Shown: piece by piece, positions 29,501 through 49,989 of the stretch
Layout of the letters: each line of letters begins with the position of its first letter
Position numbering within the stretch: position 1 is the stretch's first letter
Origin: a virus
Length of the DNA stretch: 64,000 nucleotides
Virus record (IMG/VR): IMGVR_UViG_3300030202_002773
Location: 1 to 64,000 of that record
Strand: one strand, 5' to 3'
The notes under the pieces: generated by a model
What the model was told of the DNA's origin: nothing
Seen by the model: the letters and a program-made list of their open reading frames with translations, nothing else
Database searches by the model: none
Position numbers and translations under genes: made by a program

Positions 29501-30324
29501 GTGAAGATGCTGATGATAATAATACTAAAAAAAGTAGACTGTTTGGATTTGACAATAAAACAGTTCCAGGGCTAGCTATAGCTTCAGGATTAGCTCAAAC
29601 AATTCCTGCTATATATGCAATGACACACAATCAACCAACTCCTGATCAAGTTCCATTTGCATCTGGAGTTACAAGTCCTGTAGTACCAGGAAGATTAAGA
29701 GCTGAAAAATTAAGTCATGTTAATATGAATCTTGAAAGATCAATGAATGACGCACGACTTAGAGAAATGAATCAGTTTATAGATACTTCTGGAGGAGGCC
29801 CTGCTAATTTAATAAATAGAATGGCAGCCTGGGGTAAAAAACATCAAGGAGATATGGAAATTGCAAAAGCAGAAAAAGAAGCTAATATAAATATATCAAA
29901 TCAAAATGCAATGATGCAGAATCAAACAAATCTTCATAATATAAGAAATGAGCAAGAAGCAGCTTTAGGTAATATGCAAATGCAAGCGTCTGAAGCACAA
30001 AGACTTAACGAAGTAATGGCTATTAATACTGCAGCTAAAAATAAGATTAAAGATGATGAAGAATATATGAAATATGCAGGAATTATATCTGCATCACAAG
30101 GAGTAGGTAGTATATTTGGAGACATGTTAGATTATCAAGGAGATATGTACAGAGCTGAAGGTTACGATATAGAGGGTACTACACAACGTATGTTATTAAG
30201 AAGACATTTAGGTAAAAATCTTAAAGATCCAAATACTGGAGCTTCATTTTGTGAAGGATGTACACAAGAAGATATAGCTAAATATTATAATACTTTTTAT
30301 CCAAAACAACAATCAATTATATAA
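26515..30324 (+). CDS. multidomain cargo protein: beta-rich N-terminus, T4-type lysozyme domain, crAss H-xx-GG/EVE domain, MORN-like repeats
   Basis: LKEAE...YND.RGNATIGYGRH...LLED...WDNLS...TYNPG (GH24-like); GQTHDQGGI...EVEDGET; CQSGNCQDGTG...YEGEFKDGKPVGQGKFTW. Confidence 0.7.
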   Translation: MYKKYQKAGPNDPSTSTPTNLAPDPTIGNQMGVGMEVECDTSTGAGCSDRLGRMFRLGLKGSLYGQKGAYGQPTNLGPGWDPASGQQVNNRIGTNYDYDITGNLGAYLRTDLQPLLFPNDATKLRGKNWEPWHLDLGYNRKQNLTGTNMGTGSNNITAKLAKTRDQKYGSPGYGGLFGNKGGSSKSGYSYGLQGNYNYDTKQLDNIGVFGRTGMMGPLGFSGYAGFNPQTGKPNFGAGMSVKFKKGGFRKYQNGGQNKISEKQYFANYLKEAEATDAVMKTTPSLVLRPDGKTYYNALENGIYYPYNDLRGNATIGYGRHNATILADYPDGISADKANEFLLEDIDNNFNLAKRQFNNEYGAGQWDNLSEREQYMVTNHTYNPGSIYKKFSGALLNKDAKTAGEEYKIYTYTNKGKENETKQELGRNKLFYDAYIKDYVNSINNAETQAPPVPQDTEGKLYISGNFYNSLEDYQKVVRELQDNPNYQNVVDQQTGGIKKQMGGSTMSNPSMYARMQQLPGGVMQQIPGSDAVEFIGQTHDQGGILMDAQTEVEDGETMDKVIMKKGGEKDYFFSSYLKEGGQSYADMHKEILSRGGNQEEINYLASMQEKAAKRNPNKIAKLGGVMMYAEGGAKDDISKKEKKEFQKEKYKYYNGPLSFRKWNKQNPFNIEEYMEYMNPVEEITEEAPVETIGLRQDLPGAYGYRADAGDGYTICQSGNCQDGTGVMYTYYKENPDELGGGTDGTVIGMYEGEFKDGKPVGQGKFTWNDIDQSLEDGVPFVAWQYSSEGQFAVDNTGHPELQNGVKDWGDLGVSSGIFTDGKLTSGMLVKGGETTNYEDGETTKKFSKELKTNLTDLGILEKVPFKYSQGDIGTEYKEMKNAKGYTQPTKDELNAFGYNSFDEFRADYERLVDDSYDWKNITHWGKQHEDALGEIQNAIENNSFTTTGTFIPKVKKDLKLDESKTIIGDYINTDGTIRPKCPCEPMLFADQPECDCEDADDNNTKKSRLFGFDNKTVPGLAIASGLAQTIPAIYAMTHNQPTPDQVPFASGVTSPVVPGRLRAEKLSHVNMNLERSMNDARLREMNQFIDTSGGGPANLINRMAAWGKKHQGDMEIAKAEKEANINISNQNAMMQNQTNLHNIRNEQEAALGNMQMQASEAQRLNEVMAINTAAKNKIKDDEEYMKYAGIISASQGVGSIFGDMLDYQGDMYRAEGYDIEGTTQRMLLRRHLGKNLKDPNTGASFCEGCTQEDIAKYYNTFYPKQQSII

Positions 30325-33107: not shown

Positions 33108-36100
33108 ATGCCAATAGAAATAGATCCAAATATACAGTTTCCTACTACAAAGGTTCCTAGAAATAAAACAAATGATCCTAAATGGGTAGATCCTAATACT
33201 CCACTTGTATATGGTCCAAAGAGTGGAAGAATAACTTCTCCTGCAATACACAGTCATAGAGACTTATCATGGAAATTATGGGATCCAAATTCTGGAGAAT
33301 ATGAAAACGTTTCAAAGTATAGTAAATATGGAGTTATGTTTAGTGCTTATGGGCCTTCTTGGCAAGAACAAAGAGCAAGAGGACAAAGCACTGGAGAAAA
33401 ATGGAATCACGGACTTAAAAAAGCAGCTGTAACTACTGGAGGAGCTATTGTAGAAAATACTTTAGGTGTTATAGCTGGGGTAGGAGAATTACTAAGTGGT
33501 GGTCAATATCATGATAATTCTATTGGGCATATGGTAGATGGGTGGAATGATTGGGCTAGAAAAGAAATGCCTAATTATTATACTGAAAAAGAAAAAAATA
33601 TGGGACTTTATGGTAGAATGGGAACTGCTAATTTTTGGGCTGATAAAGTTGCTAATGGTGCAGGATATACTATAGGGTCATTAGCTACTATGTACCTTAC
33701 AGGAGGATATGGTCTTATAGGTTTAAGTTCTAAAGCATTAAACATGAGTAGTAAAGCTGCTAATATAACAAAAGCACAAAAAATATATAAACTATATAAA
33801 TCAGCTCAAGGTACTAAAAGAGGAGAGAAATTATTATCAATGTATAGTAAAATGAATACAGGACAAAAGTTTAGAAATGGACTTTTAACATTAGAAGCTG
33901 GAGCAATGATGTCTTTAGCAGAATCTTCTGTAGAAGCTAGAGAAACTCAAAAAAATATAAAATCTCAATTATTAGAAGAAGCAAAAGAAAAATATCCTAA
34001 TGGAGTACCTGAAAATGTGTTAGCAGAAATTGAATCTTTATCTCAATCGGCAGGTAATAGTTCTTTTGTAGGAAATATGACTATTTTATCTTTATCTAAT
34101 ATAGCTATGTTTAATAGATTTTTAGCTGGAGGAGTTACAAAACAAAGTTTAAAGAGTGGGGTTACAGGTGGAGGATTAACAAAAACTGGAACTAAAACTG
34201 TCGTAGATAAAGGATCTTCATCTTTTTTTGGAAGAGCTAGAAAATGGACAAAACCTTTAAGAAGAGGTGCACTTATAGAAAGTCTTCAAGAAGGAGGTCA
34301 ATACGCAACAAACATAGCTTCTACAGAATACTATTCATCTAGATTTGACAATAAAGGAGGTATAACTATGATGCAAGCTCTTAATGAAGGAGTATCTAGA
34401 ACATTTGGAGAAACAGAAGGATTAGAGTCAATGATGATAGGAGCTATAATTGGGGGAGTTTCAGGAGGTGTAACTGGAACAATAGGTCCAATAAAACAAA
34501 GAAATAAATTAGCAAAAAAAGTACAAGAAATTATTAATGATGATGCTTTTATGAATATTGTTGATAGAAGTCAAGCTAATGCACGTACTTCACATTTTTT
34601 AGACAAAGCTGATAAATATAGAGCTGAAGGGAAAGATAAGTTAGCAGATCAAGCTATGACTCAAGCTTTTATAAGTGAAATATCTACTTTAGATAATGCA
34701 GGAACATTAGAATTTTTTACAGAAAGATTAGAAGATTTTAAATCTCTTTCTGATACAGAATTTAAAAAATTATTTGGTATAGCTGAAGATACACAAATAG
34801 ATAAAAATCAAGTTATTGATAATATGATAGAAGAAACTGAAAGCATAGTTAAAAGAAAAGATGCTTTAGATTTAATGTTTCCAGCTGAAAAAACAAGAGG
34901 TTTACCAAGACGTATGATGAGTGAAGAAGCTAAGGCTGAAGAAGACCAAAGAATTAAAGAAACAATGATTTTAAAAGATCATCTATTGCAAAATGCAGTA
35001 TTTTTAGATCAAGTAGAAAATCAAAAAAGAGATAAAGCAAGAGAGATAGATGAATTATATCCAGGCATAACATTAAGTACTTTAGAAGAGCAAGCAGATT
35101 TAGCTACAGAAGAATATGATTTATTAGTTGAACAGTATATTAGAAAAGCAGGGGCAGCTGAAGAAGTAGATGAAAGTGGTACTCCTATAACAAATGAAAG
35201 TCAAATTCCTGAAGCAGATTTATTAGCTATGCATCAACAAGCTTTTGGTAATTTTGTTACTAGTGTAGCAGAATCTGTTAAAAATATTAATTTAAATCAC
35301 CCTTTAGATAAACAAGCTTTAATGGGTAGTCTTCAAGAATACTATGGAATACATCGTAGTTTACAAGGTCTTATGGAGTCTTTTAATAGACTTCAAACTA
35401 ATGAAGGTAAAAATAACTATATAAGAGCAGCTTTAATAGATGGAAAACAAAGTATAAAAGATGCTGGTAATAGAAGAGCTGATGAAATTTTAAATAATGA
35501 ATCTGATCCTGACAATGCTATGGATAATATTCCTCCTAATGCTAGTAAAGCAAAAAAAGCTGAAATAGAAGAGGAAGTTAAAAGAATGAAAAAAGAAGAG
35601 CTAGCATTGTTAAATAAGTATGGAGATCCTGGAGTTTCTGTAGAAACTATAGATAAAGAAATTGAAAGACTTAAAAAAAATCTACAAGATATTAAAGATA
35701 ATCCTAAAGCTGCTAAAGATTTAAATTTTAAAATTAAAGTTTTAGAAACTGTTAAAACTGTAAAACTTAGTCCTGAAACTTCTATAGCTGAAAAAGACGC
35801 TAAGTCTGAAGTTGCTACTGAAGAAGAAGTTACCGAAGAAAATAAAGTTGAGCAGACAGGAAGAGGAAGAAGACAAATTGATAGAATAAAAAAGAAATAT
35901 GAAAGTGCAAAACAGCCTCAAGAAAAATTAGGTTTAATACAAGATTTTATTAATAATGTATATCAAGGTGCTGAGGCTACTCAAGAAGAAATAGATTTCT
36001 TTAATAATGAAATAGAAGCTCTTAAAAAAGAAGGGTTTGAACTACAAATGGAGACACAACCTGGGAATAGATGGAATGAAGGTATGAATGTAGAAGTTAT

Positions 36101-37082
36101 ATGGCGTCTAGATGATACTTTACCAGAAGGTGTTACAGTAATAGATAGAGTAGATGAGCCTGGCATTATGAAAGATGGGCAATTACAAAGAAGAGCAAAA
36201 ATAACAGTAAAACGAGGAGAGAAAAAAGGAACTGAAAGACCTGCTTTAGTTGAAGCTAGAAATAAAGCTGAAGCTATACCAGGGACAGGGAAAAAGAAAC
36301 TAGATACAATAAAAAAAGCTAGTCAAGCTCTTAGTGACTTTGATAATCAATTTACTAATCCTTTTAATCTTGCTGATTTAGCAAGTGAAGAATCAATAGT
36401 TTCTACTGAAACTGAAGTTGCTCCTATAGATCAAAGAGAGTATGAAATTCATTTAGAAGGTAATTGGGGTGAATTAAAACCTGGTTGGGGAGTATGGGAA
36501 GAGTTATCTATAGATGGAATAAAAATAGGAGATCAACGATTTACAGAACAAAAAGATATTTCATTTCTAGAAACAGAAAATAAAGATTACAGAATATTTA
36601 CAATTACAGATAGAACATCTAGAGATACTTCAGGTAGAAGTGGAGGTGTTAGTGTGTCTATGGTGTTTCCTAAAGATACGTCAAGAACTTTAGCCGATGT
36701 TAAAGAAAATTTATTAACTTTGAACGCTGAAATACAAGGAACTAGAGATCGTATACATTTTGACAGCAAAGCAATACAGGCTATTCAAAGAATGGATATG
36801 AAAGAAATAGCTACTCCTACTGTGAATGAAGAAATAGTTATAGAAGATAACACTTCTAAAGAAGAAATAATTATAAAAGAGGAATTAAGTGCGGTAGAAG
36901 AAGATAGATTAAAAAACGAGCTAGAAACAGATGTACAAACAGATATATCAACTGAAATGGCTGAAGTAGATCAAATACCTATTACAGAAATGAATGGTTA
37001 CTATCAAGATCTTTTAGTTGAAGAAGAAGAGCTTCGTAAAAGGTTAGAAGAAGAAGATGATAATTGTAAAACTAAAAAATAA
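33108..37082 (+). CDS. large cargo protein 1 of the virion RNAP cluster (hydrophobic N-terminal segments; GrpE-like insertion)
   Basis: RA.GQS..EKW..GL.K...NFW...A.GAG..GS...ESSVEARE..., IGAIIGGVSGG; acidic C-terminal coil; single Cys at -5. Confidence 0.7.
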   Translation: MPIEIDPNIQFPTTKVPRNKTNDPKWVDPNTPLVYGPKSGRITSPAIHSHRDLSWKLWDPNSGEYENVSKYSKYGVMFSAYGPSWQEQRARGQSTGEKWNHGLKKAAVTTGGAIVENTLGVIAGVGELLSGGQYHDNSIGHMVDGWNDWARKEMPNYYTEKEKNMGLYGRMGTANFWADKVANGAGYTIGSLATMYLTGGYGLIGLSSKALNMSSKAANITKAQKIYKLYKSAQGTKRGEKLLSMYSKMNTGQKFRNGLLTLEAGAMMSLAESSVEARETQKNIKSQLLEEAKEKYPNGVPENVLAEIESLSQSAGNSSFVGNMTILSLSNIAMFNRFLAGGVTKQSLKSGVTGGGLTKTGTKTVVDKGSSSFFGRARKWTKPLRRGALIESLQEGGQYATNIASTEYYSSRFDNKGGITMMQALNEGVSRTFGETEGLESMMIGAIIGGVSGGVTGTIGPIKQRNKLAKKVQEIINDDAFMNIVDRSQANARTSHFLDKADKYRAEGKDKLADQAMTQAFISEISTLDNAGTLEFFTERLEDFKSLSDTEFKKLFGIAEDTQIDKNQVIDNMIEETESIVKRKDALDLMFPAEKTRGLPRRMMSEEAKAEEDQRIKETMILKDHLLQNAVFLDQVENQKRDKAREIDELYPGITLSTLEEQADLATEEYDLLVEQYIRKAGAAEEVDESGTPITNESQIPEADLLAMHQQAFGNFVTSVAESVKNINLNHPLDKQALMGSLQEYYGIHRSLQGLMESFNRLQTNEGKNNYIRAALIDGKQSIKDAGNRRADEILNNESDPDNAMDNIPPNASKAKKAEIEEEVKRMKKEELALLNKYGDPGVSVETIDKEIERLKKNLQDIKDNPKAAKDLNFKIKVLETVKTVKLSPETSIAEKDAKSEVATEEEVTEENKVEQTGRGRRQIDRIKKKYESAKQPQEKLGLIQDFINNVYQGAEATQEEIDFFNNEIEALKKEGFELQMETQPGNRWNEGMNVEVIWRLDDTLPEGVTVIDRVDEPGIMKDGQLQRRAKITVKRGEKKGTERPALVEARNKAEAIPGTGKKKLDTIKKASQALSDFDNQFTNPFNLADLASEESIVSTETEVAPIDQREYEIHLEGNWGELKPGWGVWEELSIDGIKIGDQRFTEQKDISFLETENKDYRIFTITDRTSRDTSGRSGGVSVSMVFPKDTSRTLADVKENLLTLNAEIQGTRDRIHFDSKAIQAIQRMDMKEIATPTVNEEIVIEDNTSKEEIIIKEELSAVEEDRLKNELETDVQTDISTEMAEVDQIPITEMNGYYQDLLVEEEELRKRLEEEDDNCKTKK

Positions 37083-40000
37083 ATGGGCTGTAATGAAAAT
37101 AAAATAGGCAGTATAGAAGCTAGACTAGCTAAAATTGCTAGAATGAAAGCAGCTTTAGAAGAGCGTTTGCAAGAACAAACTCAAAAAGATAGTAGTACTA
37201 TTACAATTGCTAATGCTAAATTTGATAATGAAATTCAAAATGTTGAGGGAACAATAAGGCGTAATGTAACTATAAAAAATGAGGAAATTGTACCTGTAAA
37301 ACGAAATCCTAATACTATAAATAATCTTCCAGATGAAGTAGATAATTCTAGATTAAATAGTCAACAAATTTTACCTGGAGATTTTGTAGATGTTGCGTTA
37401 ATAGAAAATGACTATTGGGCAAACATTAAAAATGAAGTAGCAGAACCATGGATGGAAGCTCCTTTATATATTATAGACAAAGAAGGTAATAAATTAGATT
37501 TACTTGAAGCTTATAAAGAACATAATTTAAATACACACGCAAGAAAAGCAATATACGAAGCTTTACAAGAAGATAAAAAAGTTGAATTAAAAGTAGAATC
37601 TAAAATACCTAATTTTAATAATATTAGAATTGGGGGTATGCCAGTATTTTTTGATATTTCAGAACAGTTAAAAATGCATACTTTTAGAGATACTGATGGT
37701 AATTTTGTTACTGCTGTTAATGAAAATACAAAACCTATATTACTTGTTGCTACTGGTATAGGAAAAAATCCAAAATGGAATACTGGAGACTTAAGTTACT
37801 TAGAAACAAAAATACAAGAAGCTATTTATGGAGATTTAGGAGAACCTAAAAGATTACCTAAATCAGAACACATGGGTAATGTATTTGCTTTAAGTCTTAC
37901 TCCAGAAGGTAAATACTCATACGTTAAATTAAGTACAAGAAGTTTATCTAATAAAGCATATGAATATGTTTTAAATGAGTTAAAAAATAATAGAAGTGAA
38001 AATATTAATCAAATTGTAGGTAATAATACATTAAAAGAAGTTTCTCATAAAGATCCTAATTTTTTATCTATTGAAACTATAAATATTGAAGAAAATAAAG
38101 ATCTTACATTTATTAATTTTTATAGTCCTAAACATGATAAAGCTATAAGAATAACTTCTGAAGAATTTAATAAAGGTCTTAACAAAGAAGTATTTAGTTT
38201 TAATACTGGTAAATTTATTATAACTAATCCAGAAAAACTAGTACCAGATTTTAAATGGCAGACATCTAAAACTATAAAAGTATCTAAATCTGATAATGTT
38301 AATCCAGTAATAAATGAATTTTTAGAAGTTCTTAAAAATAAAAAGCATCAAATAGATATAGATTTATTAACTAGTACAGAAAATTTTTCTATTCCTGGAT
38401 TTACTAAACCTTCAGGATATAATTCATATCAAGAATATCTTTTTGATGAAAATGCGCACGGAGATCCGTATGCTTATAATATACCTGTTAAAAATAATAA
38501 AGCAATTTTAAATACAGATATAAAAAATATAGAAGGTTCTATTTATTACAATACTCATGTAGTATTTAATGATGTACTAATAGATGGAAAATCGATATTA
38601 AGTGATCCTACATTAATGCCAGAAGGAGGACTAAATCCTGCTATAGCTCCTAAATTAACAGGAGCCCCAAAAGGTCAATCTGTAGGTCCTAAATTAAATA
38701 AAGGTCCTAAATTAGGTCCTTCTGAATTAGAAGATTTATCTGCTTTTAGTGTTACTGTAGGGAATAAAAAAGCACCACCATTAAATCCTGAAAGAGCAAA
38801 AGCATGGTTAGAAGAAAGATTTGGAAAAGGGTCTACTACAATATTACAAGGAGTTAATAAAATAGGTAATATAACTAGGCATGGATATTTTGAGAATATG
38901 GCTTTTTATTTATATCAAAATGCTAGAATAGGTGTAGAATATCATGAAGGATATCATGGAATGTTTAGAATGTGGCTTACTGACAAGCAAAGAGAAGCTT
39001 TATATAATGAAGCTAGAAAAAAATATGGTATACCTACAGATAAAGAAATAAAAGAATTAAATGATACTAGAGAAAAATTTGGACTAGGAAGATTACCTAT
39101 AAAAGAAGCTGAAGAATTAGTTTTAGAAGAAAAAATGGCTGAAGATTTTAGAGAATACATGCTTACTGATGGAAACTCTTCCCCAGGAGGTAAAATAGCT
39201 AAATTTTTTAAAAGTATATGGAATTTTATTAAATCTATGTTTACTGATAGTATGAGTATTAGACAGTCTTATGAAATGCTTGAGTCTAATGTAGTTCCTG
39301 TAACATTTAAAAGGAATATTCAAAGATTTTCAGGGGATACAGCTAATTCTATAGAAGGATATACAGATAAAAATATAAAAGAAGTACTAGATTATTTAAC
39401 AGCTAGATATAGAAAAACTATAAATGATTATCAAGCAAAAGGTAAAAAAGTTCCTTATAAAAGTTTAAACACTAGAATAAAAAATTCTGTATTAAGAGAA
39501 GCTTTTTCTACTACGGAAGGTTTACCTATAGAAGGACCTCAAGATTTAGAAGTATTGAGACAATGGTATGATTCAAGATTTGACGGATTATTAAAAGATA
39601 ATAATATTGTTAAAGCTTCTCCTCAACCTATAATAGGAGAGCCAAAAACTCAAGGATATCCTGCACAAAATAATCATGATTATTTAATAAGTATTTATGA
39701 AAATTGGAACGATATAATTGATAATTCTAATACTGAAAATTTAAGACGTATAGGATTTGAAAATTTAATGCAAGATACACTAAGAGCAAGAGGTTTAAAT
39801 TTAAAATTAGGAGAAGTTATATTAGAAGAAATAGAAGAAGGCTCAGCCTATGAAAGAATATATTCTAGATCTAGAGTAGAAGAAGATATGAGAAGTAAAA
39901 TAGGATCTAAAGTAAAAGAATTCTTATCTACTATTCCTACAGGAGAAGCTTCATATTTAGGGTATGAAGTATATATGGAATTTGACAAAGTATATAAAGA

Positions 40001-43000
40001 TATACAAAATCTTTTAGCAGATTCTGCCTCTTTCCCTGTAATGCTTAAAAGGTTAGAAGATGCAGGACCATTAAAACCACATTTAGCTGAAGTACATAAA
40101 AGATTAAAAGAAACAAAAGATAATAATTTAAGAGCAGCTTTTGCATTTACTTTTAAACAAAGTAAAAATAATTTCTTTTTAGTTAAAGAAACTGTAGAAG
40201 GATTACAATTTATAAATTCTGATCGTAATGCTGTTGAATCTAGACTGTTAGACCAATGGAGAACTAATTCAGTACAGTATGAAGGATTTCCAAATGAAAG
40301 ACATTTATATAAAATAAGACAAGTAAGAGATAATTTAATTTATACTCCTAATAAAAATAGAGTTAAAAAAATAAATTCTACTTTTGACTCAATGAATAAA
40401 ATATATGATGCTAATCCTACATTACCTGTTTCTGAAGAAAGGATTGAAGATTTAATTAATTTTTTATATATGCTTGGAATAGATATAGGAACTTCACCTG
40501 AAATATCTAAAAACCTATTAAGTACTTATTTTAGAGAAGGATCAAGAGATTTTTCTAAAACAGGAGAAAAATTAAAAGAAGTAGCTTTATATAAAGCAAT
40601 GTTAGATAATAATACATCTACAGAAATATCAAGACTTGTAAAAGGTCTTAATGCTAATGAAAATATTTATAATAATTATAGAGGAGTATTATCTAGATTT
40701 GTTAACATAGCAATGAAAAGTGATGTAGATATTTTTACATCCTTTATGAATGTTAAAAATAATTCTATGTTTCCTATAAATATGCCAACTGTATTTGATG
40801 ATTTAATTTTAAATTTAAAAGGAAATAATAGAAACTTTTTTACACCTTATTTAGAAGATAGTTTTTATAACCCTTCAGAGTATAATACTGCTGCAAGATC
40901 TTTATGGTTAACAATATATGGAGGACTTGCAGGTAATTTTTCTACGGAAGCTAGACAAAATTTAAAAGCTGAAACTTTAGATGGATATAAAAAATTTAGC
41001 GGTAGAGGTTTTGATTTTGGTGAAATGAATGAATTACAATCTGCTTATATAAGACTTGGATTATTTATGGATAGATCTGGTAAAAGAGGATATGTTAATA
41101 TAGTTGCTCCTAATTTTTCTGATAGATCTAAATTAAAAAAATATTCAGTTCCCTCTATAGATACTATAACAAAAAAATTAAATATATCTGAAAAAGATAT
41201 AATAAAAGGTATTATAATTCAAGATTTAATGAGGTATCAACAAGCAGAATTAGATACTCAAACTGAAGAAGAAGGAGGATTACCAGTCAATCAATTGATA
41301 CCTGGATTTCATTATTTAGAAACTCCTGGAGATGGTTTAGGTAGAGCTTTTCAATTAATGCAATTTACTGCAGTTGAAAATTCTGAAATATTTGGAACAA
41401 AAGTAGAAAAATATTTAAGTGATGTAAATTGGGAAGATTATCTTAGTGGAAATCTAATGTCTATAAATAGAGAAGCTGTAGATCAAGCTTTAAATACTCA
41501 AGTAGAAAATGTTATTGAGTCTATGAATAATAATATTGAAAAAAATATGAAATATTATACTGATCAGGGACTAATGGCTAAACTTAATAAGTCTTCAACT
41601 AATCCATATACAAGTAAAAGAGAATTATTTAGACAATATGAATTAAATAATATGATTCATAAAATAGAACTTCAAAAATTTACTAGAGGTGGAATAGCAT
41701 TTAATAAAAGTTACACAGATTTTTCTAAAAGATTTGGTAACATGGAAACTCCTGGATATAAATTATTAATAAAAGGAGAGTTAAAAGATGAAAGTTTTGG
41801 ATTTTATAAAGAATTTAATGAAGGTTTAATAGAAGACTTTTTTACTACACCTTTAATTTATGATGAAATTGGAGAATCTATTACAGCTACATTACAACAA
41901 CAAGGGGATCCTGAAGCTGAAAGTCTAGGTAATTTATATAAAGGAGGACAGTCTAATAAATCAGATGCTTTTGGAGTTGTGTCTATAGATTTTTATAAAG
42001 CATTTCAGCAAGGAAAAGGAGAATGGCAAAAAGAAGATGAAGAAGCATTTCAAAATTATAAAAATGGAAAACCAGGAAGTAGATTTTTTAGAGACAATAG
42101 TGGCAGGCGTAGAAGAGTAGCTCCTATTAAAACATATTTTGATGCTATGATTGTTAAAAATGGTAGTATGATTCCTAGTAATACTAAAAATTCATATATG
42201 GTATTATTAGAAGAGTTTACACTAAGTAATCCTACTACAGAAATGATAAGACAAAGACTAGAAAAAGAAAGTAATTTCTATCATTTACCTGAAATGCATG
42301 TATTAAATACTGTTAGTACTAAAAAATTAGCCTATAGTGGCGTAGAAGACCTTAATAATAAAGATAATGTATTAGAAAAATTAACTAATATGGCAGTAAC
42401 ATCTCATCCAGGTTCTTCTTTAAGAATTCCTCAAATAATTCCAGAAAAAAATAAAAATTCTGGAATATTTGCTAGGCAATTTATGATAAATATTATAGCT
42501 AATATGGATTTAAATAATCCTTCTCTTGATTATAATGTAAATGAAAATAGATCTAATTCTCTTTCACTAAATGCAAAACAAGTTTTTGATTTATATCAAA
42601 ATTCTATTGTAAATATGATAGATAATAGCTTTAATGATTTTATTACTAAAATAGGTTATAAAGGTTTAATAAATGCAACAGGACATGAAAATAGAATAGA
42701 ATCACAATTAAATTTATTTAAAAGTTTAAGAGAAAGAATAAGTGAAGAATTAAAAGAAAGAGAATTATCTAATAATTATACAAATGCTTTAAATATAGAA
42801 AAAACAGAAAAAGGAAATTATAGATTTAAAACACCACTAGCTTTTCCTTTTATAAAGCGTAAAACAGAAAGTCTTGTTATGGGAATGCTTAAAAAAGATA
42901 TTGCTAAGCAGACTATTAATGGAGGAAGCGCTAAGCAAATTGCAGAATTGGGAGGACATATAACTTATGAACAATCTACAGGTCTACCAAGTAATTGGAC

Positions 43001-45449
43001 AGAATTAAAATTTATTAGAAATAAAGATGGAAGTATAAAACATGCAGAAGTAGCTATACGTGCAGATGTTGCTGCTCGATATGGTCTTAAACCAGGTCAA
43101 AATTTAAACTCTATACCTGAAAGTTTAAGAACTTTAGTAGCATATCGTATTCCTAATCAAGGTAAAAATTCTATGCTTCCTATGATTATTAAGTATGTAT
43201 TACCTGAAAATTATGACCAAGCAATTGTTGTTCCTGGGGGAATTACAACTCAACAAGGAGGTGATTTTGATATTGATACATTATATTTAATGATGCCTAA
43301 CACTAGAAGAAATTCTCAAACGAATAAAATAGAAAAAATAAATGTAGATTATAATAAATTATTTCTAGATGGTCAATTAAATTATATAGAATTAGAAAAA
43401 TTAAATAGACAAGAATTAGAAAATATAATAATAGATTTATCAGAAGCTATTCTTAGATCTAAAAAACACTTTAAAGAAGTTGTACAGCCTTTAGATTCTC
43501 CGGATCTTAAAAATATTGCAGAAAATATAAAAGAGGTATTAAATTTAGAACAAACATTTGACCATAATGATTCATTTTCAGAAATACAATTAGAAAGAAT
43601 GAATAAAGACGGTAATAATGGAATTGGTATTTATGCAAATGCGCTATCCGGTAAAAATATTGCTGTTTATTCTGAATTACATTTAAAAGCAGGATTAGCT
43701 CCTATTATTGATAATAAAGAATATAATAATTTACAAGTATTTAAAGATGATAAAAGTACTTCTAAACGTACTCCAGACAGAGAAAGTGAGCTTATAGAGT
43801 ATAATATATCTAAAAAATTAAGTTCTGCAGTAGATAATGCAAAAGCTCCTGATATGTTTTTTAGAAATGATAATCTTTTAACATCTCCTATAAATACTTT
43901 ATTTGATTCTTTAGGAATTAATGAATTTACTACACATGATTATTTAAATCAGCCTATTATTAAAATGTTAACTAAAGTGTATCAAGATGGTGAGTATACA
44001 CCTAATATGTTATATGAAGCTGCAAGTGCAACTTGGGATCAATATATAGATAAATATGATACAGGCGCATCTTTGAATATGCCATTCTCAGAACTTACAG
44101 ATTTTGGATTTTCAGATATGTTTACTGAAAAGTTACAAAATATATCAGAAGAAAATATAGATCATGAAGATCAACTTGGATATCTTAATAATTTTTTATC
44201 ATTTCATAAAACAGGTAGAGAATTAACAAGTGCTTATGTAGTTCTTAATCAAGATAAAGGTGCAGATCAAGCTAGCTTTGGAGGATTACTTTCTTTTAAA
44301 GGAAGGAGAAATGTTTTATTACAGAATGATACTGTAAAAGGTTTTGATTCTGTATTAGATGGAACTTCATACCCTTTACAAGCTGCTTATAAGACATTAA
44401 TTGACCAAATGTTAAATTTTGGATCCGAGTTTTTTATACACAATAAAAGATCTGTAGTTAAAACTAAAGCTACAATAGCAACTTTATTAAATAAAGAAAA
44501 TTTAACAGATGTAGATCATAGAACTATTGAAGATGCTATGCTATTATACATGATGTCTAAAAATGATAGCCCACTAAGTTCTATATTTACAGATTCAAAA
44601 ATAAATGAATTATTAAGAGGTAATAAAACTAATTTATTTGCTAAATTGCAAAAATTAAAATTAGAATTTCCAGAATTGAATGAAAATGCATTTATAAAAA
44701 ACGTAGTAGAGCACCCAGAAAATATAAAAGAAGGTTCTCTTTTAACAAGAGTTAAATTTCAAAATATATATTCATTTACTAAATCTGAAGTAGATTCTTT
44801 TATTAGAAGTTTTGGTAATTTAATGGTTCATGAAAATCCTCAAATAAGAGAAATAGCTAATGATTTTATAAGTGTTTCTTTATTAACTAATGGTTTTACA
44901 CCTAGCCATGATAGTTTTATAGATATAATACCTGTAGAAGCATTAAAAAGATCTTCTAATTATTTTTATGATCAATTCGATCTGTTAGACAATATAGAGT
45001 ATTTTGATAATGATTTTGCACATGATTTTGTACGTAATTTTTATTATACAGATATAGTAAATAATATTAGAGTTTCAAAAAACGTTGTAAATTCTAATGT
45101 AATCAAACTTAATTGGAAAGATAGTAGAATTTATTCTAAAAATTTAAATAAAACAGTAGATTATTTTACTGTATCTAATAATCAAGGAACTAAATTATTT
45201 GTTAAAAATGCAGAAGTTGGAAATGATGTATTTTATGAAAGATCTACTACAAAAGGTATACCACATGGATTAAAAGAAATAAATATAAAAAATTCTGAAG
45301 GTATAAAAATAGAAAAATCAGTTATTCAATCAAATTATATAAATAAAAGTAATACAAAACCTGGACTAGCTCGAATACATGAAAATAAAGTTAATGAAGC
45401 AGTTGCAGATAATGAAGACGCAATTAAAAGATGTATAAATATAACATAA
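37083..45449 (+). CDS. virion-packaged two-barrel DNA-dependent RNA polymerase (phi14:2 gp66-like) with upstream zincin-like domain
   Basis: YRIPNQGKNSM and GGDFDIDTL (DFDID at 43263-43277), KRF...TPG, SSAVDNAK; HEGYH (38943-38957) followed by EEKMAE. Confidence 0.9.
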   Translation: MGCNENKIGSIEARLAKIARMKAALEERLQEQTQKDSSTITIANAKFDNEIQNVEGTIRRNVTIKNEEIVPVKRNPNTINNLPDEVDNSRLNSQQILPGDFVDVALIENDYWANIKNEVAEPWMEAPLYIIDKEGNKLDLLEAYKEHNLNTHARKAIYEALQEDKKVELKVESKIPNFNNIRIGGMPVFFDISEQLKMHTFRDTDGNFVTAVNENTKPILLVATGIGKNPKWNTGDLSYLETKIQEAIYGDLGEPKRLPKSEHMGNVFALSLTPEGKYSYVKLSTRSLSNKAYEYVLNELKNNRSENINQIVGNNTLKEVSHKDPNFLSIETINIEENKDLTFINFYSPKHDKAIRITSEEFNKGLNKEVFSFNTGKFIITNPEKLVPDFKWQTSKTIKVSKSDNVNPVINEFLEVLKNKKHQIDIDLLTSTENFSIPGFTKPSGYNSYQEYLFDENAHGDPYAYNIPVKNNKAILNTDIKNIEGSIYYNTHVVFNDVLIDGKSILSDPTLMPEGGLNPAIAPKLTGAPKGQSVGPKLNKGPKLGPSELEDLSAFSVTVGNKKAPPLNPERAKAWLEERFGKGSTTILQGVNKIGNITRHGYFENMAFYLYQNARIGVEYHEGYHGMFRMWLTDKQREALYNEARKKYGIPTDKEIKELNDTREKFGLGRLPIKEAEELVLEEKMAEDFREYMLTDGNSSPGGKIAKFFKSIWNFIKSMFTDSMSIRQSYEMLESNVVPVTFKRNIQRFSGDTANSIEGYTDKNIKEVLDYLTARYRKTINDYQAKGKKVPYKSLNTRIKNSVLREAFSTTEGLPIEGPQDLEVLRQWYDSRFDGLLKDNNIVKASPQPIIGEPKTQGYPAQNNHDYLISIYENWNDIIDNSNTENLRRIGFENLMQDTLRARGLNLKLGEVILEEIEEGSAYERIYSRSRVEEDMRSKIGSKVKEFLSTIPTGEASYLGYEVYMEFDKVYKDIQNLLADSASFPVMLKRLEDAGPLKPHLAEVHKRLKETKDNNLRAAFAFTFKQSKNNFFLVKETVEGLQFINSDRNAVESRLLDQWRTNSVQYEGFPNERHLYKIRQVRDNLIYTPNKNRVKKINSTFDSMNKIYDANPTLPVSEERIEDLINFLYMLGIDIGTSPEISKNLLSTYFREGSRDFSKTGEKLKEVALYKAMLDNNTSTEISRLVKGLNANENIYNNYRGVLSRFVNIAMKSDVDIFTSFMNVKNNSMFPINMPTVFDDLILNLKGNNRNFFTPYLEDSFYNPSEYNTAARSLWLTIYGGLAGNFSTEARQNLKAETLDGYKKFSGRGFDFGEMNELQSAYIRLGLFMDRSGKRGYVNIVAPNFSDRSKLKKYSVPSIDTITKKLNISEKDIIKGIIIQDLMRYQQAELDTQTEEEGGLPVNQLIPGFHYLETPGDGLGRAFQLMQFTAVENSEIFGTKVEKYLSDVNWEDYLSGNLMSINREAVDQALNTQVENVIESMNNNIEKNMKYYTDQGLMAKLNKSSTNPYTSKRELFRQYELNNMIHKIELQKFTRGGIAFNKSYTDFSKRFGNMETPGYKLLIKGELKDESFGFYKEFNEGLIEDFFTTPLIYDEIGESITATLQQQGDPEAESLGNLYKGGQSNKSDAFGVVSIDFYKAFQQGKGEWQKEDEEAFQNYKNGKPGSRFFRDNSGRRRRVAPIKTYFDAMIVKNGSMIPSNTKNSYMVLLEEFTLSNPTTEMIRQRLEKESNFYHLPEMHVLNTVSTKKLAYSGVEDLNNKDNVLEKLTNMAVTSHPGSSLRIPQIIPEKNKNSGIFARQFMINIIANMDLNNPSLDYNVNENRSNSLSLNAKQVFDLYQNSIVNMIDNSFNDFITKIGYKGLINATGHENRIESQLNLFKSLRERISEELKERELSNNYTNALNIEKTEKGNYRFKTPLAFPFIKRKTESLVMGMLKKDIAKQTINGGSAKQIAELGGHITYEQSTGLPSNWTELKFIRNKDGSIKHAEVAIRADVAARYGLKPGQNLNSIPESLRTLVAYRIPNQGKNSMLPMIIKYVLPENYDQAIVVPGGITTQQGGDFDIDTLYLMMPNTRRNSQTNKIEKINVDYNKLFLDGQLNYIELEKLNRQELENIIIDLSEAILRSKKHFKEVVQPLDSPDLKNIAENIKEVLNLEQTFDHNDSFSEIQLERMNKDGNNGIGIYANALSGKNIAVYSELHLKAGLAPIIDNKEYNNLQVFKDDKSTSKRTPDRESELIEYNISKKLSSAVDNAKAPDMFFRNDNLLTSPINTLFDSLGINEFTTHDYLNQPIIKMLTKVYQDGEYTPNMLYEAASATWDQYIDKYDTGASLNMPFSELTDFGFSDMFTEKLQNISEENIDHEDQLGYLNNFLSFHKTGRELTSAYVVLNQDKGADQASFGGLLSFKGRRNVLLQNDTVKGFDSVLDGTSYPLQAAYKTLIDQMLNFGSEFFIHNKRSVVKTKATIATLLNKENLTDVDHRTIEDAMLLYMMSKNDSPLSSIFTDSKINELLRGNKTNLFAKLQKLKLEFPELNENAFIKNVVEHPENIKEGSLLTRVKFQNIYSFTKSEVDSFIRSFGNLMVHENPQIREIANDFISVSLLTNGFTPSHDSFIDIIPVEALKRSSNYFYDQFDLLDNIEYFDNDFAHDFVRNFYYTDIVNNIRVSKNVVNSNVIKLNWKDSRIYSKNLNKTVDYFTVSNNQGTKLFVKNAEVGNDVFYERSTTKGIPHGLKEINIKNSEGIKIEKSVIQSNYINKSNTKPGLARIHENKVNEAVADNEDAIKRCINIT

Positions 45450-45453
45450 TACT

Positions 45454-48400
45454 ATGAGATGTAGATTTTATTTACACGGGAAACCTAGCCAATTTTTAAC
45501 AGATTTATATAATGCTGTAGAAGAAATAAATCCTAATTTAGGTATGATACATGATATACTTAAACATTATAAAGTTATACAACAAAGATACGGTAAGATG
45601 TTTATTTACCAAGGAGAAGATTCTAGTATAGCTTTAAATCATGTTCGAAGAATAAATAGAAGATATCCTAATTTAATAGCTTATGAATATAAAGGTCAAA
45701 CTAGTAATAGGTTTGGACGGGAAAATAATGAAAAATATACATTTGAGATAAATACAGCTGTTCTTAATAATGTAAAAAATATGAGTTTTCCTGAAGACGC
45801 TATAGAAATAGAAAAGGAAGAACGATTAGCTGCTCAAGCTAGAGAGGAAAGGGATATGAAACTTGCTGAACAATCATTATCAGAACAAGTTAGGAGAGAA
45901 AATACATCAGAGAATAAAAGTTTATTTGGAAAAGAAGAAGAAAAAAGTGAATCTGTAAAAAAAGCAGATAAATTAAAACATCATTTTAAAGGAGTTGGAG
46001 TAGATATTAATGTAAATTTTACTAATGATTTAGCACCTAATGTTTCAGCAGATATTACAGGCACCGGCCCTAGATCTGCAGATGTAAGATTAAATAATAC
46101 ATATCTACAAGATGATGGTGTATATCATGAATTTGGACATGCTTATATAGATCTTCTTGGTATAGATAATACTTTAGTTAAACAGGCTTTTAAACAGCTT
46201 AAAGGGTCTGAATTAGAAAAAACAGTACTTAATTCTTATCCTGGGTTAGAAGGTGTAAAATTACAAAAAGAAGTATTAGCAACAGCTATAGGATTAGAAG
46301 GAGCTAAGGTAGAAAAAAAGAATCCATCTAAAATACAAATTTTATTAAATAAAATATTTAGAAGTATTGGAAAATTATTAGGTATAAATCAAAATGCTGC
46401 TGCTATATTAGCTGAGCAAATGTTTGCTGGAGAAATAAGATCTAAATATCTTATTGGAGAAATAAGTGGATTTACACAAGAATCTAAAGATAGAAATTCT
46501 TTACAAAAGAAAATTGATGATGTTAGAATATATACGAGAAAACTTAAACGAATAGCAGAACAACGTAATGATGCAGCTAGTCAGGCAAGAGCTGAGGCAC
46601 TAGAACAAACTTTAGAAAATATAAAATCACTAGAAGATTTTATATCTTTTATAGATATGTCTGCTAAAATAACTTCTAATATTGCAAATAAATATCAGTT
46701 ATTACAAAATAAAATAAAAGCAGGTGAAAAAATTGAAACTTCAGATCAAGCTACTTTAGCTGAATTAAATCAATATATACAGGGTTTTGATATTCTAGAA
46801 GGATTAGAAGTACTTTTTACGGAAGAAAAGCAAAATAGAGTAAAACAAACAACAGCTTTTAATACAGCATATGATAAACTTGGAGCTGTTGTTAGACAAA
46901 GAAAATATTTAGAACAGCAATATATAGATATTGCAATTCCAATACAAGCAGAGTTTTTATCTCCATATATATCTCAAGAAGTTAATGAAAATTTAGATAG
47001 TTTAATACAAAATATTGATGAGCAAGAAGGTATTGATAATAAAGTATTAGCTGCAAAAAGACATTTAGATAAAAAAGATAATAATTGGATTCAATTAAAT
47101 AAAGATCTAAAACAAAAAAGAATTTCTGAAGAGGAGTATAAAAATAATCTTATATCTTTAGTTAAAGAGCAGTTAGAAAATAAGAAAATGCATAAAAAAA
47201 CATTAATTCAAATTTTAACAAGAGCTCATAAAGATGGAAGTACTTTTTCTTATTGGATGGATCCATTAGTTTGGTCTAACGATAATGCTATACAATTATT
47301 TGCATTAGCAGTTAAAGATGCATTATATGAAGGAGATGAAAAAAGTAGAGAAACTCAATATAAAATTCAAGAATTATATAATAATTTCACTGAAGGAGTT
47401 ACAGGAATAAACAATGTTCAAAAGTTATATGAAGATTTAACAGAAGATATTAAAACTTGGGTAAGAGATGAAGATGGAAGTTATAAACAGATAGATAGAG
47501 CTGGATGGGTACAAGAATTAGATATGCCTAGATATCAAAAGAATAAACAACAAGCAGTCGAGCAAGCAAAAAACAAAACTTATTTTAGGGAAAGAAAGGA
47601 TTTTGAAAGCGATGAGCTATTTGAAGACTATAAAAATAGTATAGTGGATTATAAAGTTAATGGTAAAGTTGTATATAAAGCTCAAACTAAAGAAGAAGCT
47701 TATAGATTAGTTAGAAGAGCATTTGGAGAGGCAATGGGGAAATGGAGACAAGAAAATACAGTACCTAAAAGAGATGCTCAAGAAATTATGAGAAAGCATG
47801 AAGATAAAATAGCTTATGTTTATAAAGAAATGAGACCTCTTCAAAAAAAGCTTGACGATAATACAATAACATCTATAGAAATAGAAAAATTAAATTCTTT
47901 AGAAATAGAATTAAGTATTTTAGACAATTGGAGACAAACTAATTATTATGTTAACCCAAGATATCCAGATAGCTTAACTCCTAAAGGATCGTTAGTACAA
48001 CCTTCACAAGGAGAAAAATTAGCAGGTGGTAAAAATAGAGTAGATTATACTAATTCTAAATATAAAGCTATTATGGCTGATCCTAGGAAGAGAAAGTTTT
48101 ATGAGGGAATGATATCTATATATAAAGAACATCAAGATAAATTAGGATCTGCAGGACATCAGTTAGGAAAAGATAGTTTTAGTGATATGGCCTATGCTTT
48201 ACCGTCAATAAGAAAAGTAGATAAAGATAGAGCTATAGAACAAGGAGTACTTAAAACAATGAAAGAATGGTGGGTAGATGGAACAGATATAACTGATACT
48301 GATTATCATATATACGGACAAAGATGGGAAACTATTGGAGGTAAACAGCGTAAAGTAGTACCTGCTTTTTTTACTAATGCTGTAGATAAAAATGAAATAA

Positions 48401-49989
48401 GTTTAGATTTAACTTCTAGCCTGTTAGCATTTGTAGGTATGGCTAATACATATGAAGCTAAAGCAGGAATTCAAGCTCAAGTACAAATAATGTCAGATTT
48501 AATTGAACATAGAGAAACAGATTTAACATCTCCTTCAGGAATAAAAATTATAAATGATTTAGCAAAAGGACTTGGAATTGAACAAGCTAGATCTAAAGAA
48601 GGGCGTGAGAGTAATAACTTTAAACATTTAACATCTTTTTTAGATCAAAATGTATTTGGTGAAAAAGCAATTTTAAAACAATTCTCATTTTTTGGAAAGC
48701 AATTTGAAGCTAATAAACTATCTGGTAAATTAGCTGGATATACAGCTATGAATGCTTTATCTTTCAATTTATTACAAGGAGTTAATCAAAATGTACTTGA
48801 TAATATAATTGGATATAGTGAAGCCTCTGCAGGTCAATTTATAGATAAAAAATCTTTACTTAAAGGTAAAAATACTTATTGGAGTAAAGGTGGAGCAATT
48901 GGAGATTTAGGTAAAATAGCTCCTACTACTTTTGTAGGACAAATAGCTGAAATGTATGATATGATTCAAGGAGAATTTAGAGATAATTTAGGTAAAAATG
49001 TAACAGGAACTAATGCTAAAAAATTATTTTCAAGTGATGCTATGTTCTTTTTACAGCACGGTGCAGAACATGAAGTTCAAGTAAGTAGAGGTTTAGGAAT
49101 GTTGGCATTTATGAAAGCTAAAGATAAAAAAGGTAAGCAGCTTAAAAATCCAGATGGTTCTGATATGACAATGTTAGATGCACATAGTCAAGATAGCAAG
49201 GGTAGAGTAAAAGTTGATGAAAGAGTTGCTAATTTTGATAGAATGAGATTTATGAATAGAATACATGGTATAAATAAACGTACTAATGGTGTCTATAATG
49301 ACTTTGATGCTGCACATTTAAAAAGACATTGGTATGGTAAATTAGCAATGTTATTCAGAGGATGGATGGTTCCAGGTTATAGAAGAAGATTTGGACACGG
49401 AGAGCCTTGGCATTCAGATCATGAATTAGGAGCAATAACTCAAGGAACTTATATGACTTTTTATAAAATGCTTAGAGACAGTATTAAAACTCAGAGTAAT
49501 CAATATAAAAATATGTCTGAGCTAGAAAAACAAAATGTAAGAAGAGTATCAACAGAAATATACGCTTTAGCTACTACATTTGCAATTGCTTCTGCTGCAG
49601 CATTATTAATAGATCCTGACGATGAAGAGCCTAATAGCTGGGCTGTTAATTTCTTATTATATCAAAATAGAAGATTACGTTCTGAACTTTTCTTTTATGT
49701 AAATCCACATGAAACATGGAGATTAACTAAATCGCCTACAGCAACAATTAGACCATTAGAAAATATTGGAGCATTTGCTTTATCTACTTTAGAAAATATG
49801 TATTATTTTGGACTTGGAAATTTAGGGGGATTAATACCTGAAAAAAATATTTATTACCAAAGAAAGTCTGGAGCTAATAAAAAAGGTGAACTTAAATGGG
49901 ATAATAAACTTGAAAAAGCTATTCCTATATTAAAAGGTGTTGGAACTAGTAAAACTCCTGGAGAAGCTATTAAGTGGTTTAATATGTAG
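45454..49989 (+). CDS. large cargo protein 3 of the virion RNAP cluster with zincin-like domain
   Basis: HEFGH (46126-46140) then KEVLA; C-terminal NGVYN...GKLAMLFRGWM...GTY.T region typical of the third crAss RNAP-cluster protein; single Cys at +3. Confidence 0.8.
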   Translation: MRCRFYLHGKPSQFLTDLYNAVEEINPNLGMIHDILKHYKVIQQRYGKMFIYQGEDSSIALNHVRRINRRYPNLIAYEYKGQTSNRFGRENNEKYTFEINTAVLNNVKNMSFPEDAIEIEKEERLAAQAREERDMKLAEQSLSEQVRRENTSENKSLFGKEEEKSESVKKADKLKHHFKGVGVDINVNFTNDLAPNVSADITGTGPRSADVRLNNTYLQDDGVYHEFGHAYIDLLGIDNTLVKQAFKQLKGSELEKTVLNSYPGLEGVKLQKEVLATAIGLEGAKVEKKNPSKIQILLNKIFRSIGKLLGINQNAAAILAEQMFAGEIRSKYLIGEISGFTQESKDRNSLQKKIDDVRIYTRKLKRIAEQRNDAASQARAEALEQTLENIKSLEDFISFIDMSAKITSNIANKYQLLQNKIKAGEKIETSDQATLAELNQYIQGFDILEGLEVLFTEEKQNRVKQTTAFNTAYDKLGAVVRQRKYLEQQYIDIAIPIQAEFLSPYISQEVNENLDSLIQNIDEQEGIDNKVLAAKRHLDKKDNNWIQLNKDLKQKRISEEEYKNNLISLVKEQLENKKMHKKTLIQILTRAHKDGSTFSYWMDPLVWSNDNAIQLFALAVKDALYEGDEKSRETQYKIQELYNNFTEGVTGINNVQKLYEDLTEDIKTWVRDEDGSYKQIDRAGWVQELDMPRYQKNKQQAVEQAKNKTYFRERKDFESDELFEDYKNSIVDYKVNGKVVYKAQTKEEAYRLVRRAFGEAMGKWRQENTVPKRDAQEIMRKHEDKIAYVYKEMRPLQKKLDDNTITSIEIEKLNSLEIELSILDNWRQTNYYVNPRYPDSLTPKGSLVQPSQGEKLAGGKNRVDYTNSKYKAIMADPRKRKFYEGMISIYKEHQDKLGSAGHQLGKDSFSDMAYALPSIRKVDKDRAIEQGVLKTMKEWWVDGTDITDTDYHIYGQRWETIGGKQRKVVPAFFTNAVDKNEISLDLTSSLLAFVGMANTYEAKAGIQAQVQIMSDLIEHRETDLTSPSGIKIINDLAKGLGIEQARSKEGRESNNFKHLTSFLDQNVFGEKAILKQFSFFGKQFEANKLSGKLAGYTAMNALSFNLLQGVNQNVLDNIIGYSEASAGQFIDKKSLLKGKNTYWSKGGAIGDLGKIAPTTFVGQIAEMYDMIQGEFRDNLGKNVTGTNAKKLFSSDAMFFLQHGAEHEVQVSRGLGMLAFMKAKDKKGKQLKNPDGSDMTMLDAHSQDSKGRVKVDERVANFDRMRFMNRIHGINKRTNGVYNDFDAAHLKRHWYGKLAMLFRGWMVPGYRRRFGHGEPWHSDHELGAITQGTYMTFYKMLRDSIKTQSNQYKNMSELEKQNVRRVSTEIYALATTFAIASAAALLIDPDDEEPNSWAVNFLLYQNRRLRSELFFYVNPHETWRLTKSPTATIRPLENIGAFALSTLENMYYFGLGNLGGLIPEKNIYYQRKSGANKKGELKWDNKLEKAIPILKGVGTSKTPGEAIKWFNM

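Follow-up and report, generated by a model that had tools for sequence, protein, structure and literature searches.

Why should three adjoining giant proteins of a phage carry only four cysteines between them, each of them close to an end that faces the next protein? The question is raised by the RNA polymerase cargo module in a window of 64,000 nucleotides (nt) of DNA, positions 1 to 64,000 of the IMG/VR virus record IMGVR_UViG_3300030202_002773, where the open reading frames (ORFs) for proteins A, B and C abut and are all read from the plus strand (Table 1). The full record comprises 81,845 bases and is estimated to be 95% complete; a search of a phage collection found no DNA nearly identical to the window. 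The terminal cysteines of this module recur throughout its relatives and follow the points at which the genes are split, a pattern that points to a divided cargo polyprotein, probably stitched together again by inter-protein disulfides between the facing terminal cysteines.

Four cysteines in three giant cargo proteins

The identity of the module was established by homology. Protein B matches chain A of PDB entry 6VR4, the virion RNA polymerase gp66 of phage phi14:2 (E 2e-12, a distant homology), in agreement with the earlier note on this DNA, which had named the middle protein a crAss-type RNA polymerase. A tblastn search with B retrieved 98 crAss-like phage records, all below 60% identity, and B carries the motif DFDID, which the phi14:2 preprint names as the catalytic motif of gp66. 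Because of these three observations the phage is assigned, by homology, to the crAss-like group as a divergent member, with A-B-C as its RNA polymerase cargo module. Using phmmer, either directly or via fused forms, A was linked to phi14:2 gp67 and crAss001 gp47, and C to phi14:2 gp65 and crAss001 gp49. Pfam and PHROGs supplied a function for none of the three proteins, the single PHROG match (A to phrog_32390, E 1.4e-28) being of unknown function, and no sequence relatives of A or C were found in the PDB. Proteins of the gp67/gp66/gp65 type were detected in the phi14:2 virion by mass spectrometry (phi14:2 preprint), as were gp47, gp49 and gp50 in the crAss001 virion (PMC10172136, available text). 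By analogy, A, B and C are most likely packed in the virion and injected by the phage studied here.

Checking the ORF list and its translations returned the three reading frames, their lengths, and the positions and codon coordinates of the four cysteines exactly as the earlier note had given them. The three proteins together contain 4 cysteines in 5,623 amino acids (aa), and the outer ends, the N-terminus of A and the C-terminus of C, have none. If four cysteines were placed at random among 5,623 residues, the probability of finding one in each of the four 5-residue windows at the inner termini would be 1.5e-11, a figure that is post hoc and for which replication in relatives is the real test. 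The genome does not avoid cysteine in general, as other ORFs of the window reach 4-6% cysteine. Two such ORFs, one of 1447 aa with 62 cysteines (1528-5871) and one of 832 aa with 47 (9979-12477), share the genome with the nearly cysteine-free cargo.

Terminal cysteines follow the gene split points

A relative with about 70% identity (L001) has the same four cysteines and no others. From a set of 5.8 billion proteins 28 homologues of B were recovered, of which 18 were unfused (2000-2817 aa, 27-75% identity), and all 18 contain exactly two cysteines, one at residue 3 and the other within the last 7 residues. Alignments place the terminal cysteines in invariant columns: Cys3 and Cys2784 of B among 13 B homologues (down to 27% identity), Cys1320 of A in 14 clade members, and Cys3 of C in 16 C heads. 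The homologous modules of two cultured crassviruses, gp67-gp66-gp65 of phi14:2 (gp66 being the protein of 6VR4) and gp47-gp50-gp49 of crAss001, have the same terminal cysteine pattern as the window, although their A|B split point lies elsewhere. In phi14:2 the single cysteine of gp67 is its last residue, gp66 has cysteines at residues 3 and 2179 of 2180, and gp65 has one at residue 3. In crAss001 the single cysteine of gp47 is at position -3 from its end, those of gp50 are at residues 5, 1334 and 2404 of 2412, and gp49 has one at residue 5. Because the crAss001 gp47 gene lies on the opposite strand, away from gp50, and nevertheless keeps its cysteine end, the pattern belongs to the proteins and not to the DNA junction.

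The survey was then defined by a profile of B homologues, from which the best 80 of 395 confirmed IMG/VR relatives were taken; their ORFs were classified by phmmer and by hidden Markov models (HMMs) of the protein cores. Together with the window, L001, phi14:2 and crAss001 this gave 84 sources, 81 of them with classifiable module proteins of at least 600 aa, which collapse to 71 non-redundant clusters. Wherever two module genes are adjacent, the upstream protein was found to have a cysteine among its last 10 residues and the downstream protein one among its first 10 (74 of 74 junctions; 71 of 71 when redundancy is removed). The upstream cysteine lies 1-9 residues from the C-terminus and the downstream one at residues 3-8. 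At the natural outer ends the picture is the reverse. Proteins that end with C have a cysteine-free C-terminus in 56 of 56 cases, and those that start with A have a cysteine-free N-terminus in 34 of 35, the sole exception (L008) being a mislabelled B protein with a shifted split, whose upstream ORF ends in cysteine. As controls, 182 other ORFs of at least 250 aa from the same loci were scored: a cysteine occurs among the first 10 residues of 18 of them and among the last 10 of 13, and none of 78 adjacent control gene pairs has cysteines on both sides. Cysteine density is 0.68% in the control ORFs versus 0.042% at internal positions of the module proteins, and 102 of 145 module proteins have no cysteine outside the terminal 10 residues.

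Two junctions with gaps of more than 700 nt (L022 and L052) were set aside from the junction count; in each gap region an extra ORF piece bears the expected cysteine, a 673-aa piece ending in cysteine in L022 and a 272-aa piece with Cys4 in L052. At L022 9751-10148 and L052 19869-20436 module genes are broken by about 400-570 nt and coding resumes in another ORF, possibly reflecting inserts, introns or frameshifts. Three loci (L069, L082, L083) were left out of the counts, their ORFs across the B match being fragmentary and below the 600-aa filter. Their B region is spread over many ORFs of 160-500 aa (translation table 11), which may be due to stop-codon reassignment, introns or poor assembly. 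A homologues were also collected independently from a protein database: 67 of 71 have a cysteine in the last 10 residues, all 71 lack an N-terminal one, and 66 have no other cysteine.

Relatives of the window encode the module in four architectures (A|B|C, AB|C, A|BC and ABC), all of which were found, and the cysteines occur only at real split points. A|B|C genomes have four terminal cysteines. AB|C genomes (e.g. L014, L015, L029, L037, L045) retain only those at the C-terminus of AB and the N-terminus of C. In A|BC genomes seen in genomic context (L090, L092-L094) the upstream protein has its sole cysteine at position -3 and the BC fusion its sole cysteine at residue 7; among BC fusions from the database, Cys5 is the only cysteine of P0104 and Cys7 the only one of P0110. 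The full ABC fusions P0020 and P0101-P0103 have 0-1 cysteines, none of them terminal, and L020 is probably such a fusion too, its A part having been missed by the profile. For 74 B-bearing proteins the state of each junction was called, where possible, from the domains present. Where A and B are split, the B-bearing protein has an N-terminal cysteine in 18 of 18 cases (plus L090, assigned by position), and where they are fused in 0 of 24; where B and C are split, it has a C-terminal cysteine in 51 of 51 cases, and where they are fused in 0 of 13. Mapped on a tree of the B core, A/B has switched between split and fused on at least 6 occasions and B/C on at least 7. The cysteine followed the split or fusion in 13 of 13 contrasts between phylogenetically independent pairs, namely 6 of 6 for A/B (p 0.031) and 7 of 7 for B/C (p 0.016).

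The A|B split point itself also shifts between lineages. Residues 74-258 of the B protein of L008 match residues 1362-1546 of phi14:2 gp67 (E 4e-67), and residues 565-735 of the window's B match residues 2095-2245 of crAss001 gp47 (blastp E 3e-7). Lineages with a shifted A|B split have cysteines at the actual ends only. Taken together, the four architectures, the 71 two-sided junctions, the 13 contrasts and the shifted splits clearly bear out the idea that terminal cysteine pairs move with the gene split points. As for the head-to-tail order put forward in the earlier note, no topology other than pairing of adjacent termini (C-terminus of A with N-terminus of B, and C-terminus of B with N-terminus of C) accounts for all four architectures, judged from the sequences.

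A probable disulfide between facing ends and its rivals

Two single cysteines that are always gained or lost together would most simply be explained by a disulfide. According to this model, A, B and C would together make up one giant cargo polyprotein, for which other crAss-like phages use a single gene or two, and each gene split would give both new protein ends one cysteine, the upstream cysteine sitting at the end of a flexible lysine-rich tail and the downstream cysteine at the tip of a head domain that is small and folded. Once the proteins are in the capsid, outside the reducing cytoplasm, the facing pair would oxidise, and the disulfides would create a pseudo-linear A-B-C chain with side stubs of at most 9 residues, while the near-complete purge of other cysteines would stop wrong cross-links. 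With the trailing C-terminus of one protein tied to the leading N-terminus of its successor, the chain could pass through the narrow tail channel as a single thread, drawn N-to-C. Host thiol reductases would then reduce the links in the cytoplasm and the chain would fall apart. Stoichiometric packaging or sequential ejection, the roles suggested in the earlier note, may be what such links serve. Papilloma- and polyomaviruses offer a comparison: their capsids contain disulfides that arise extracellularly and are broken when the virus enters, so that uncoating is tied to the reducing cytoplasm; there, however, the bonds link capsid subunits of eukaryotic viruses, whereas here they would link ejected enzymes.

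A bond of the proposed kind has been seen once. Cryo-electron microscopy of cyanopodophage A4 resolved a Cys1715 (gp27)-Cys5 (gp26) disulfide in the pre-ejectosome, which the available text presents as a structural detail and not as a rule tied to gene splits (PNAS 2025, PMC12002296). In the proteins of Anabaena phage A-4L, the sole cysteine of gp27 (1717 aa) is residue 1715 (position -3) and the sole cysteine of the adjacent gp26 (1114 aa) is residue 5. Like the window, A4 thus has adjacent genes for large ejected proteins with sole, facing terminal cysteines; unlike the window, it has one link instead of a chain of two, and no RNA polymerase is involved. The A4 gp27 and gp26 proteins gave no match to the crAss A, B or C proteins or to their heads at E<=1 (phmmer, core and head HMMs), and no A4 chain was among the fold matches of the C head model. 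Inter-subunit disulfides are also present in the tail and portal-vertex proteins of the crAss001 virion (gp57 dimer, tail hub, ring proteins; PMC10172136, available text). Like the bonds proposed for the window they join subunits in a crassvirus particle, but they lie in folded interfaces of the fixed capsid and tail scaffold, whereas the cysteines of the window lie at the extreme ends of ejected cargo. The A4 precedent and the crAss001 virion disulfides make a disulfide in the present module plausible.

The pairing evidence itself carries no information on the chemistry of the link, and the facing termini could be joined otherwise, by a metal ion bridging both thiolates together with other ligands or by a covalent cross-link between a cysteine and a neighbouring lysine. 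Lysine is indeed enriched beside the tail cysteine (of 84 tails, 32 have one at -2 and 26 have one at +1), and HExxH metal-site motifs occur elsewhere in both B and C. Each junction, however, offers two cysteines only, conserved His, Cys or Asp partners are lacking in the vicinity, and the only solved case of the same signature, that of A4, is a disulfide; we regard a link of another chemistry as unlikely. One version of it, a four-cysteine metal site built from all the termini, is ruled out, since the AB|C and A|BC forms have two cysteines in total. It is less probable again that each terminal cysteine acts alone, either as an anchor to the portal or capsid wall or as a modification or processing signal of the new termini. 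Such anchoring would be in keeping with crAss001, which has several disulfides between different structural proteins, but the cysteines are gained and lost pairwise at one split site, as seen in the 71 of 71 two-sided junctions and the 13 of 13 contrasts, and the natural outer ends are free of cysteine (56 of 56 C-ends, 34 of 35 N-ends). Because fused junctions lack the cysteine, it is not a cleavage signal. Two special roles of a terminal cysteine were rejected. A split intein needs an IntN part of about 100 aa after the tail cysteine and an IntC part of about 35 aa before a +1 Cys, Ser or Thr, and only 0-8 and 2-7 residues, respectively, are available. A lipobox cysteine usually lies at about residues 15-25, and the head cysteine is at residues 3-8 with no preceding hydrophobic stretch; no hydrophobic 19-mer was found near the N-termini of B or C.

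A different topology, in which the two terminal cysteines of B bond to each other to form a ring and A is paired with C, would be permitted by the four cysteines of the window alone. The fused relatives speak against it: AB|C genomes keep the C-terminal cysteine of B and the N-terminal one of C, and A|BC genomes keep the C-terminal cysteine of A and the N-terminal one of B. A fusion would therefore orphan two cysteines belonging to two bonds, while with head-to-tail pairing it loses exactly one bond, and the ring is accordingly very improbable. That the cysteines have no function, owing their position to chance, to composition or to a signal in the DNA of the junction such as ribosome binding or translational coupling, is hardly credible. 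The cysteine codons are indeed no more than about 30 nt away from a gene boundary, but crAss001 gp47 and the A homologue of L064, which are encoded on the opposite strand and are not followed by B, still end in cysteine. Moreover, the conservation reaches below 25% identity, none of the 78 control junctions shows the pattern, and an unrelated phage, A4, has the same signature with a solved disulfide.

Several observations weigh against a disulfide-linked chain. Conditions in the cytoplasm are reducing, and the gut in which many crassviruses live is anoxic. No redox-active thioredoxin or glutaredoxin was found in this genome: the thioredoxin-fold match of a 120-aa ORF (9616-9978) scored 22.2 bits, under the Pfam cut-off of 23.5, and this ORF cannot be a redox-active thioredoxin because it has no cysteine. 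A search of the genome for Erv/ALR oxidases was uninformative, its control also being without a match. Internal cysteines occur in 43 of 145 module proteins, mostly in one many-cysteine group of loci, so that the avoidance of wrong pairing is not absolute; the restriction of cysteines to the junctions, as initially claimed, describes the window but not all of its relatives. Among the 71 A homologues P0070 and P0073 have no cysteine whatever, and that of P0089 is 17 residues from the end. P0093 also lacks cysteine and is probably a fragment, because its relative L088 is an AB fusion. For the BC fusions, P0111 has 13 cysteines, the first at residue 31, and P0109 has none, probably through a difference in the start call, since it equals P0110 minus the first 10 residues. 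Lastly, in the test of junction states the domains gave no call for A/B in 31 of the 74 proteins and none for B/C in 10 of the 74, and the B-core tree was built by FastTree on HMM match columns only.

A bolder extension of the disulfide chain is that a cysteine-ended tail and an exchangeable cysteine-tipped head constitute a portable 'split-and-staple' connector, that the cargo leaves as an N-to-C thread, and that reduction by the host frees the RNA polymerase and thereby gates the start of infection; this we put forward tentatively, as a possibility more likely to be wrong than right. If this is true, crassviruses could use the connector to divide a polyprotein exceeding 4,500 residues at varied places and yet deliver one thread.

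Crassviruses are the most abundant phages of the human gut, and the pattern bears on how they pack, order and eject a cargo of about 600-700 kDa that includes an RNA polymerase. In crAss001, gp47, gp49 and gp50 occupy the cargo zone of the capsid, must partly unfold to pass the tail, and have an order described as 'likely controlled by packing and interactions' (PMC10172136, available text). A full-text literature search, in which subscription papers were mostly not covered, found no paper linking crassvirus cargo or RNA polymerase proteins with cysteines or disulfides. The words cysteine, disulfide and Cys occur 0 times in the phi14:2 preprint, as do disulfide and cysteine in the 2026 N4 paper, and the available text of the crAss001 atlas, which excludes its supplementary bond list, mentions disulfides only for gp57 and tail proteins (PMC10172136). 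What is already known is thus a terminal disulfide between consecutive ejection proteins, once, in A4; new are the putative two-link chain around an RNA polymerase, the order-wide rule tied to split points, and the head module, which appears from sequence comparison to be exchangeable. The two specific covalent links that the rule predicts could be looked for directly in phi14:2 and crAss001, and annotators gain a simple means of recognising where the module genes truly end and in what order they stand. The rule further suggests a general way for phages to replace a peptide bond after a giant gene has been split.

Junction anatomy and neighbouring genes

The first ~60 residues of the downstream partner fall into families of 'head' modules that are common to B and C: comparison of 91 heads gave 127 matches between the two kinds, and four of the six largest head families contain both B and C heads. 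The C head of the window belongs to head family 1, which has 16 members. AlphaFold2, run on the first 330 residues of C with a 16-sequence alignment, predicted a confident alpha/beta domain at about residues 5-110, with blocks of the predicted local distance difference test (pLDDT) at 89-93 over residues 11-80 and a first strand at residues 6-7. A Foldseek search of the PDB with this head model gave no match at E<=0.001. Head HMMs detected no internal copies of the head in fused proteins, bar one marginal match at residue 13, which is weak evidence of absence given 60-residue profiles and distant sequences.

On the upstream side, an AlphaFold2 model of the last 300 aa of B has pLDDT below 50 at model residues 236-252 and 254-300, which are mostly coil. 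Among relatives 0-8 residues follow the tail cysteine and 2-7 precede the head cysteine. The A tails and B tails have no detectable homology to each other (0 cross matches), and there is therefore no 'tail module' to match the head. The models thus suggest a picture in which a flexible cysteine-ended leash meets a cysteine-tipped knob.

Apart from their cysteines, the termini are very diverse. The earlier note had described an acidic coil at the A tail and a basic coil at the B head, likening them to docking domains. The acidic tail was confirmed (net charge -8 over the last 45 aa), whereas the basic character of the B head proved weak, its first 45 aa having a net charge of +1. An acidic A tail facing an amphipathic B head helix was found only in the window, L001, L005 and L006, that is, in 4 of the 15 A|B loci listed; at the others the facing charges are not complementary (e.g. 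tail +6 and head -2 in phi14:2). As a general feature the docking-coil idea therefore fails, the helices being confined to close relatives of the window. Prediction of a complex between A residues 1225-1324 and B residues 1-100, made from clade alignments, scored 0.16 against a mark of 0.32, a value that was obtained without controls and speaks neither for nor against binding. The docking domains of polyketide synthases and nonribosomal peptide synthetases are short C- and N-terminal elements of consecutive giant proteins that set the order of the polypeptides; they are non-covalent and free of cysteine. The proposed links would resemble them in fixing order at facing termini, but the helical pair of the window is shared by its close relatives only.

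In L075 the head of B and the head of C match each other at E 1e-17. The A tail and B tail of this locus are near-identical, ending K-C-K-G, and its heads are of the same family. Because the junction peptides alone cannot tell A-B from B-C there, something other than these peptides must set the order in L075, unless that order is not strict.

Both B and C also contain a zincin-type motif. The N-terminus of B is about 600 aa longer than that of phi14:2 gp66 (window 37083-39200), and the HEGYH motif in this extension is conserved in the clade consensus. In crAss001 the homologue of this segment is the C-terminal part of gp47, so that a putative metalloprotease-like domain would lie on different sides of the A|B split according to lineage. 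For C, there was no Pfam match to a zincin-like domain and fold matches to zinc metallopeptidases were weak (E about 0.2); the phi14:2 preprint gives a zincin-like protease domain for gp65 orthologues.

Table 1. Cargo module of the window and its junction elements, with upstream context (window coordinates).
Feature	Position	Strand	Description
Protein A	33108..37082	+	1324 aa; first protein of the RNA polymerase cargo module; sole Cys is residue 1320
A tail Cys codon (TGT)	37065..37067	+	residue 1320, 5th from the C-terminus; proposed donor of the A-B link
Protein B	37083..45449	+	2788 aa; virion RNA polymerase homologue; Cys at residues 3 and 2784 only
B head Cys codon (TGT)	37089..37091	+	residue 3; proposed acceptor of the A-B link
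HEGYH, HExxH zincin-type motif	38943..38957	+	B residue 621, in the N-terminal extension; motif only
DFDID motif	43263..43277	+	two-barrel RNA polymerase catalytic motif (by homology); B residues 2061-2065; invariant in 13 homologues
B flexible C-terminal tail	45255..45446	+	about the last 64 residues; low-confidence coil (predicted); carries Cys2784
B tail Cys codon (TGT)	45432..45434	+	residue 2784, 5th from the end; proposed donor of the B-C link
Protein C	45454..49989	+	1511 aa; homologue of phi14:2 gp65 and crAss001 gp49; sole Cys is residue 3
C head domain	45454..45783	+	about residues 1-110; compact alpha/beta, Cys3 on unstructured N-terminal tip (predicted)
C head Cys codon (TGT)	45460..45462	+	residue 3; proposed acceptor of the B-C link
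HEFGH, zincin-type motif	46126..46140	+	C residue 225; E226 is an invariant column
924-aa Cys-free ORF	30328..33102	+	upstream context, likely cargo; outside the Cys chain in this genome
794-aa Cys-free ORF	24119..26503	+	upstream context, likely cargo

Upstream of the module, cysteine-free equivalents of the 924-aa protein precede it in many relatives. Between the two cysteine-free ORFs of the window lies a 1269-aa protein (26515-30324) with weak lysozyme and MORN-repeat matches and 10 cysteines in close pairs (39/47, 715/720, 981/983, 994/996 and 1246/1249), the spacing of which suggests metal sites or internal disulfides.

A variant of the module was seen in L086 (58-18906), where the upstream ORF ends in cysteine and a 3264-aa B protein has cysteines at residue 5 and position -4; the downstream protein, unusually long at 2758 aa, has a Cys4 and no match to the C-core profile. 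In L037, L051, L056, L075, L076 and L079 the gene that follows C has a conserved cysteine-rich N-terminus, with cysteines at about residues 5, 10, 18, 28 and 49, followed by repeats rich in Gly, Ser and Thr, and thus bears a cysteine-containing head of a different kind.

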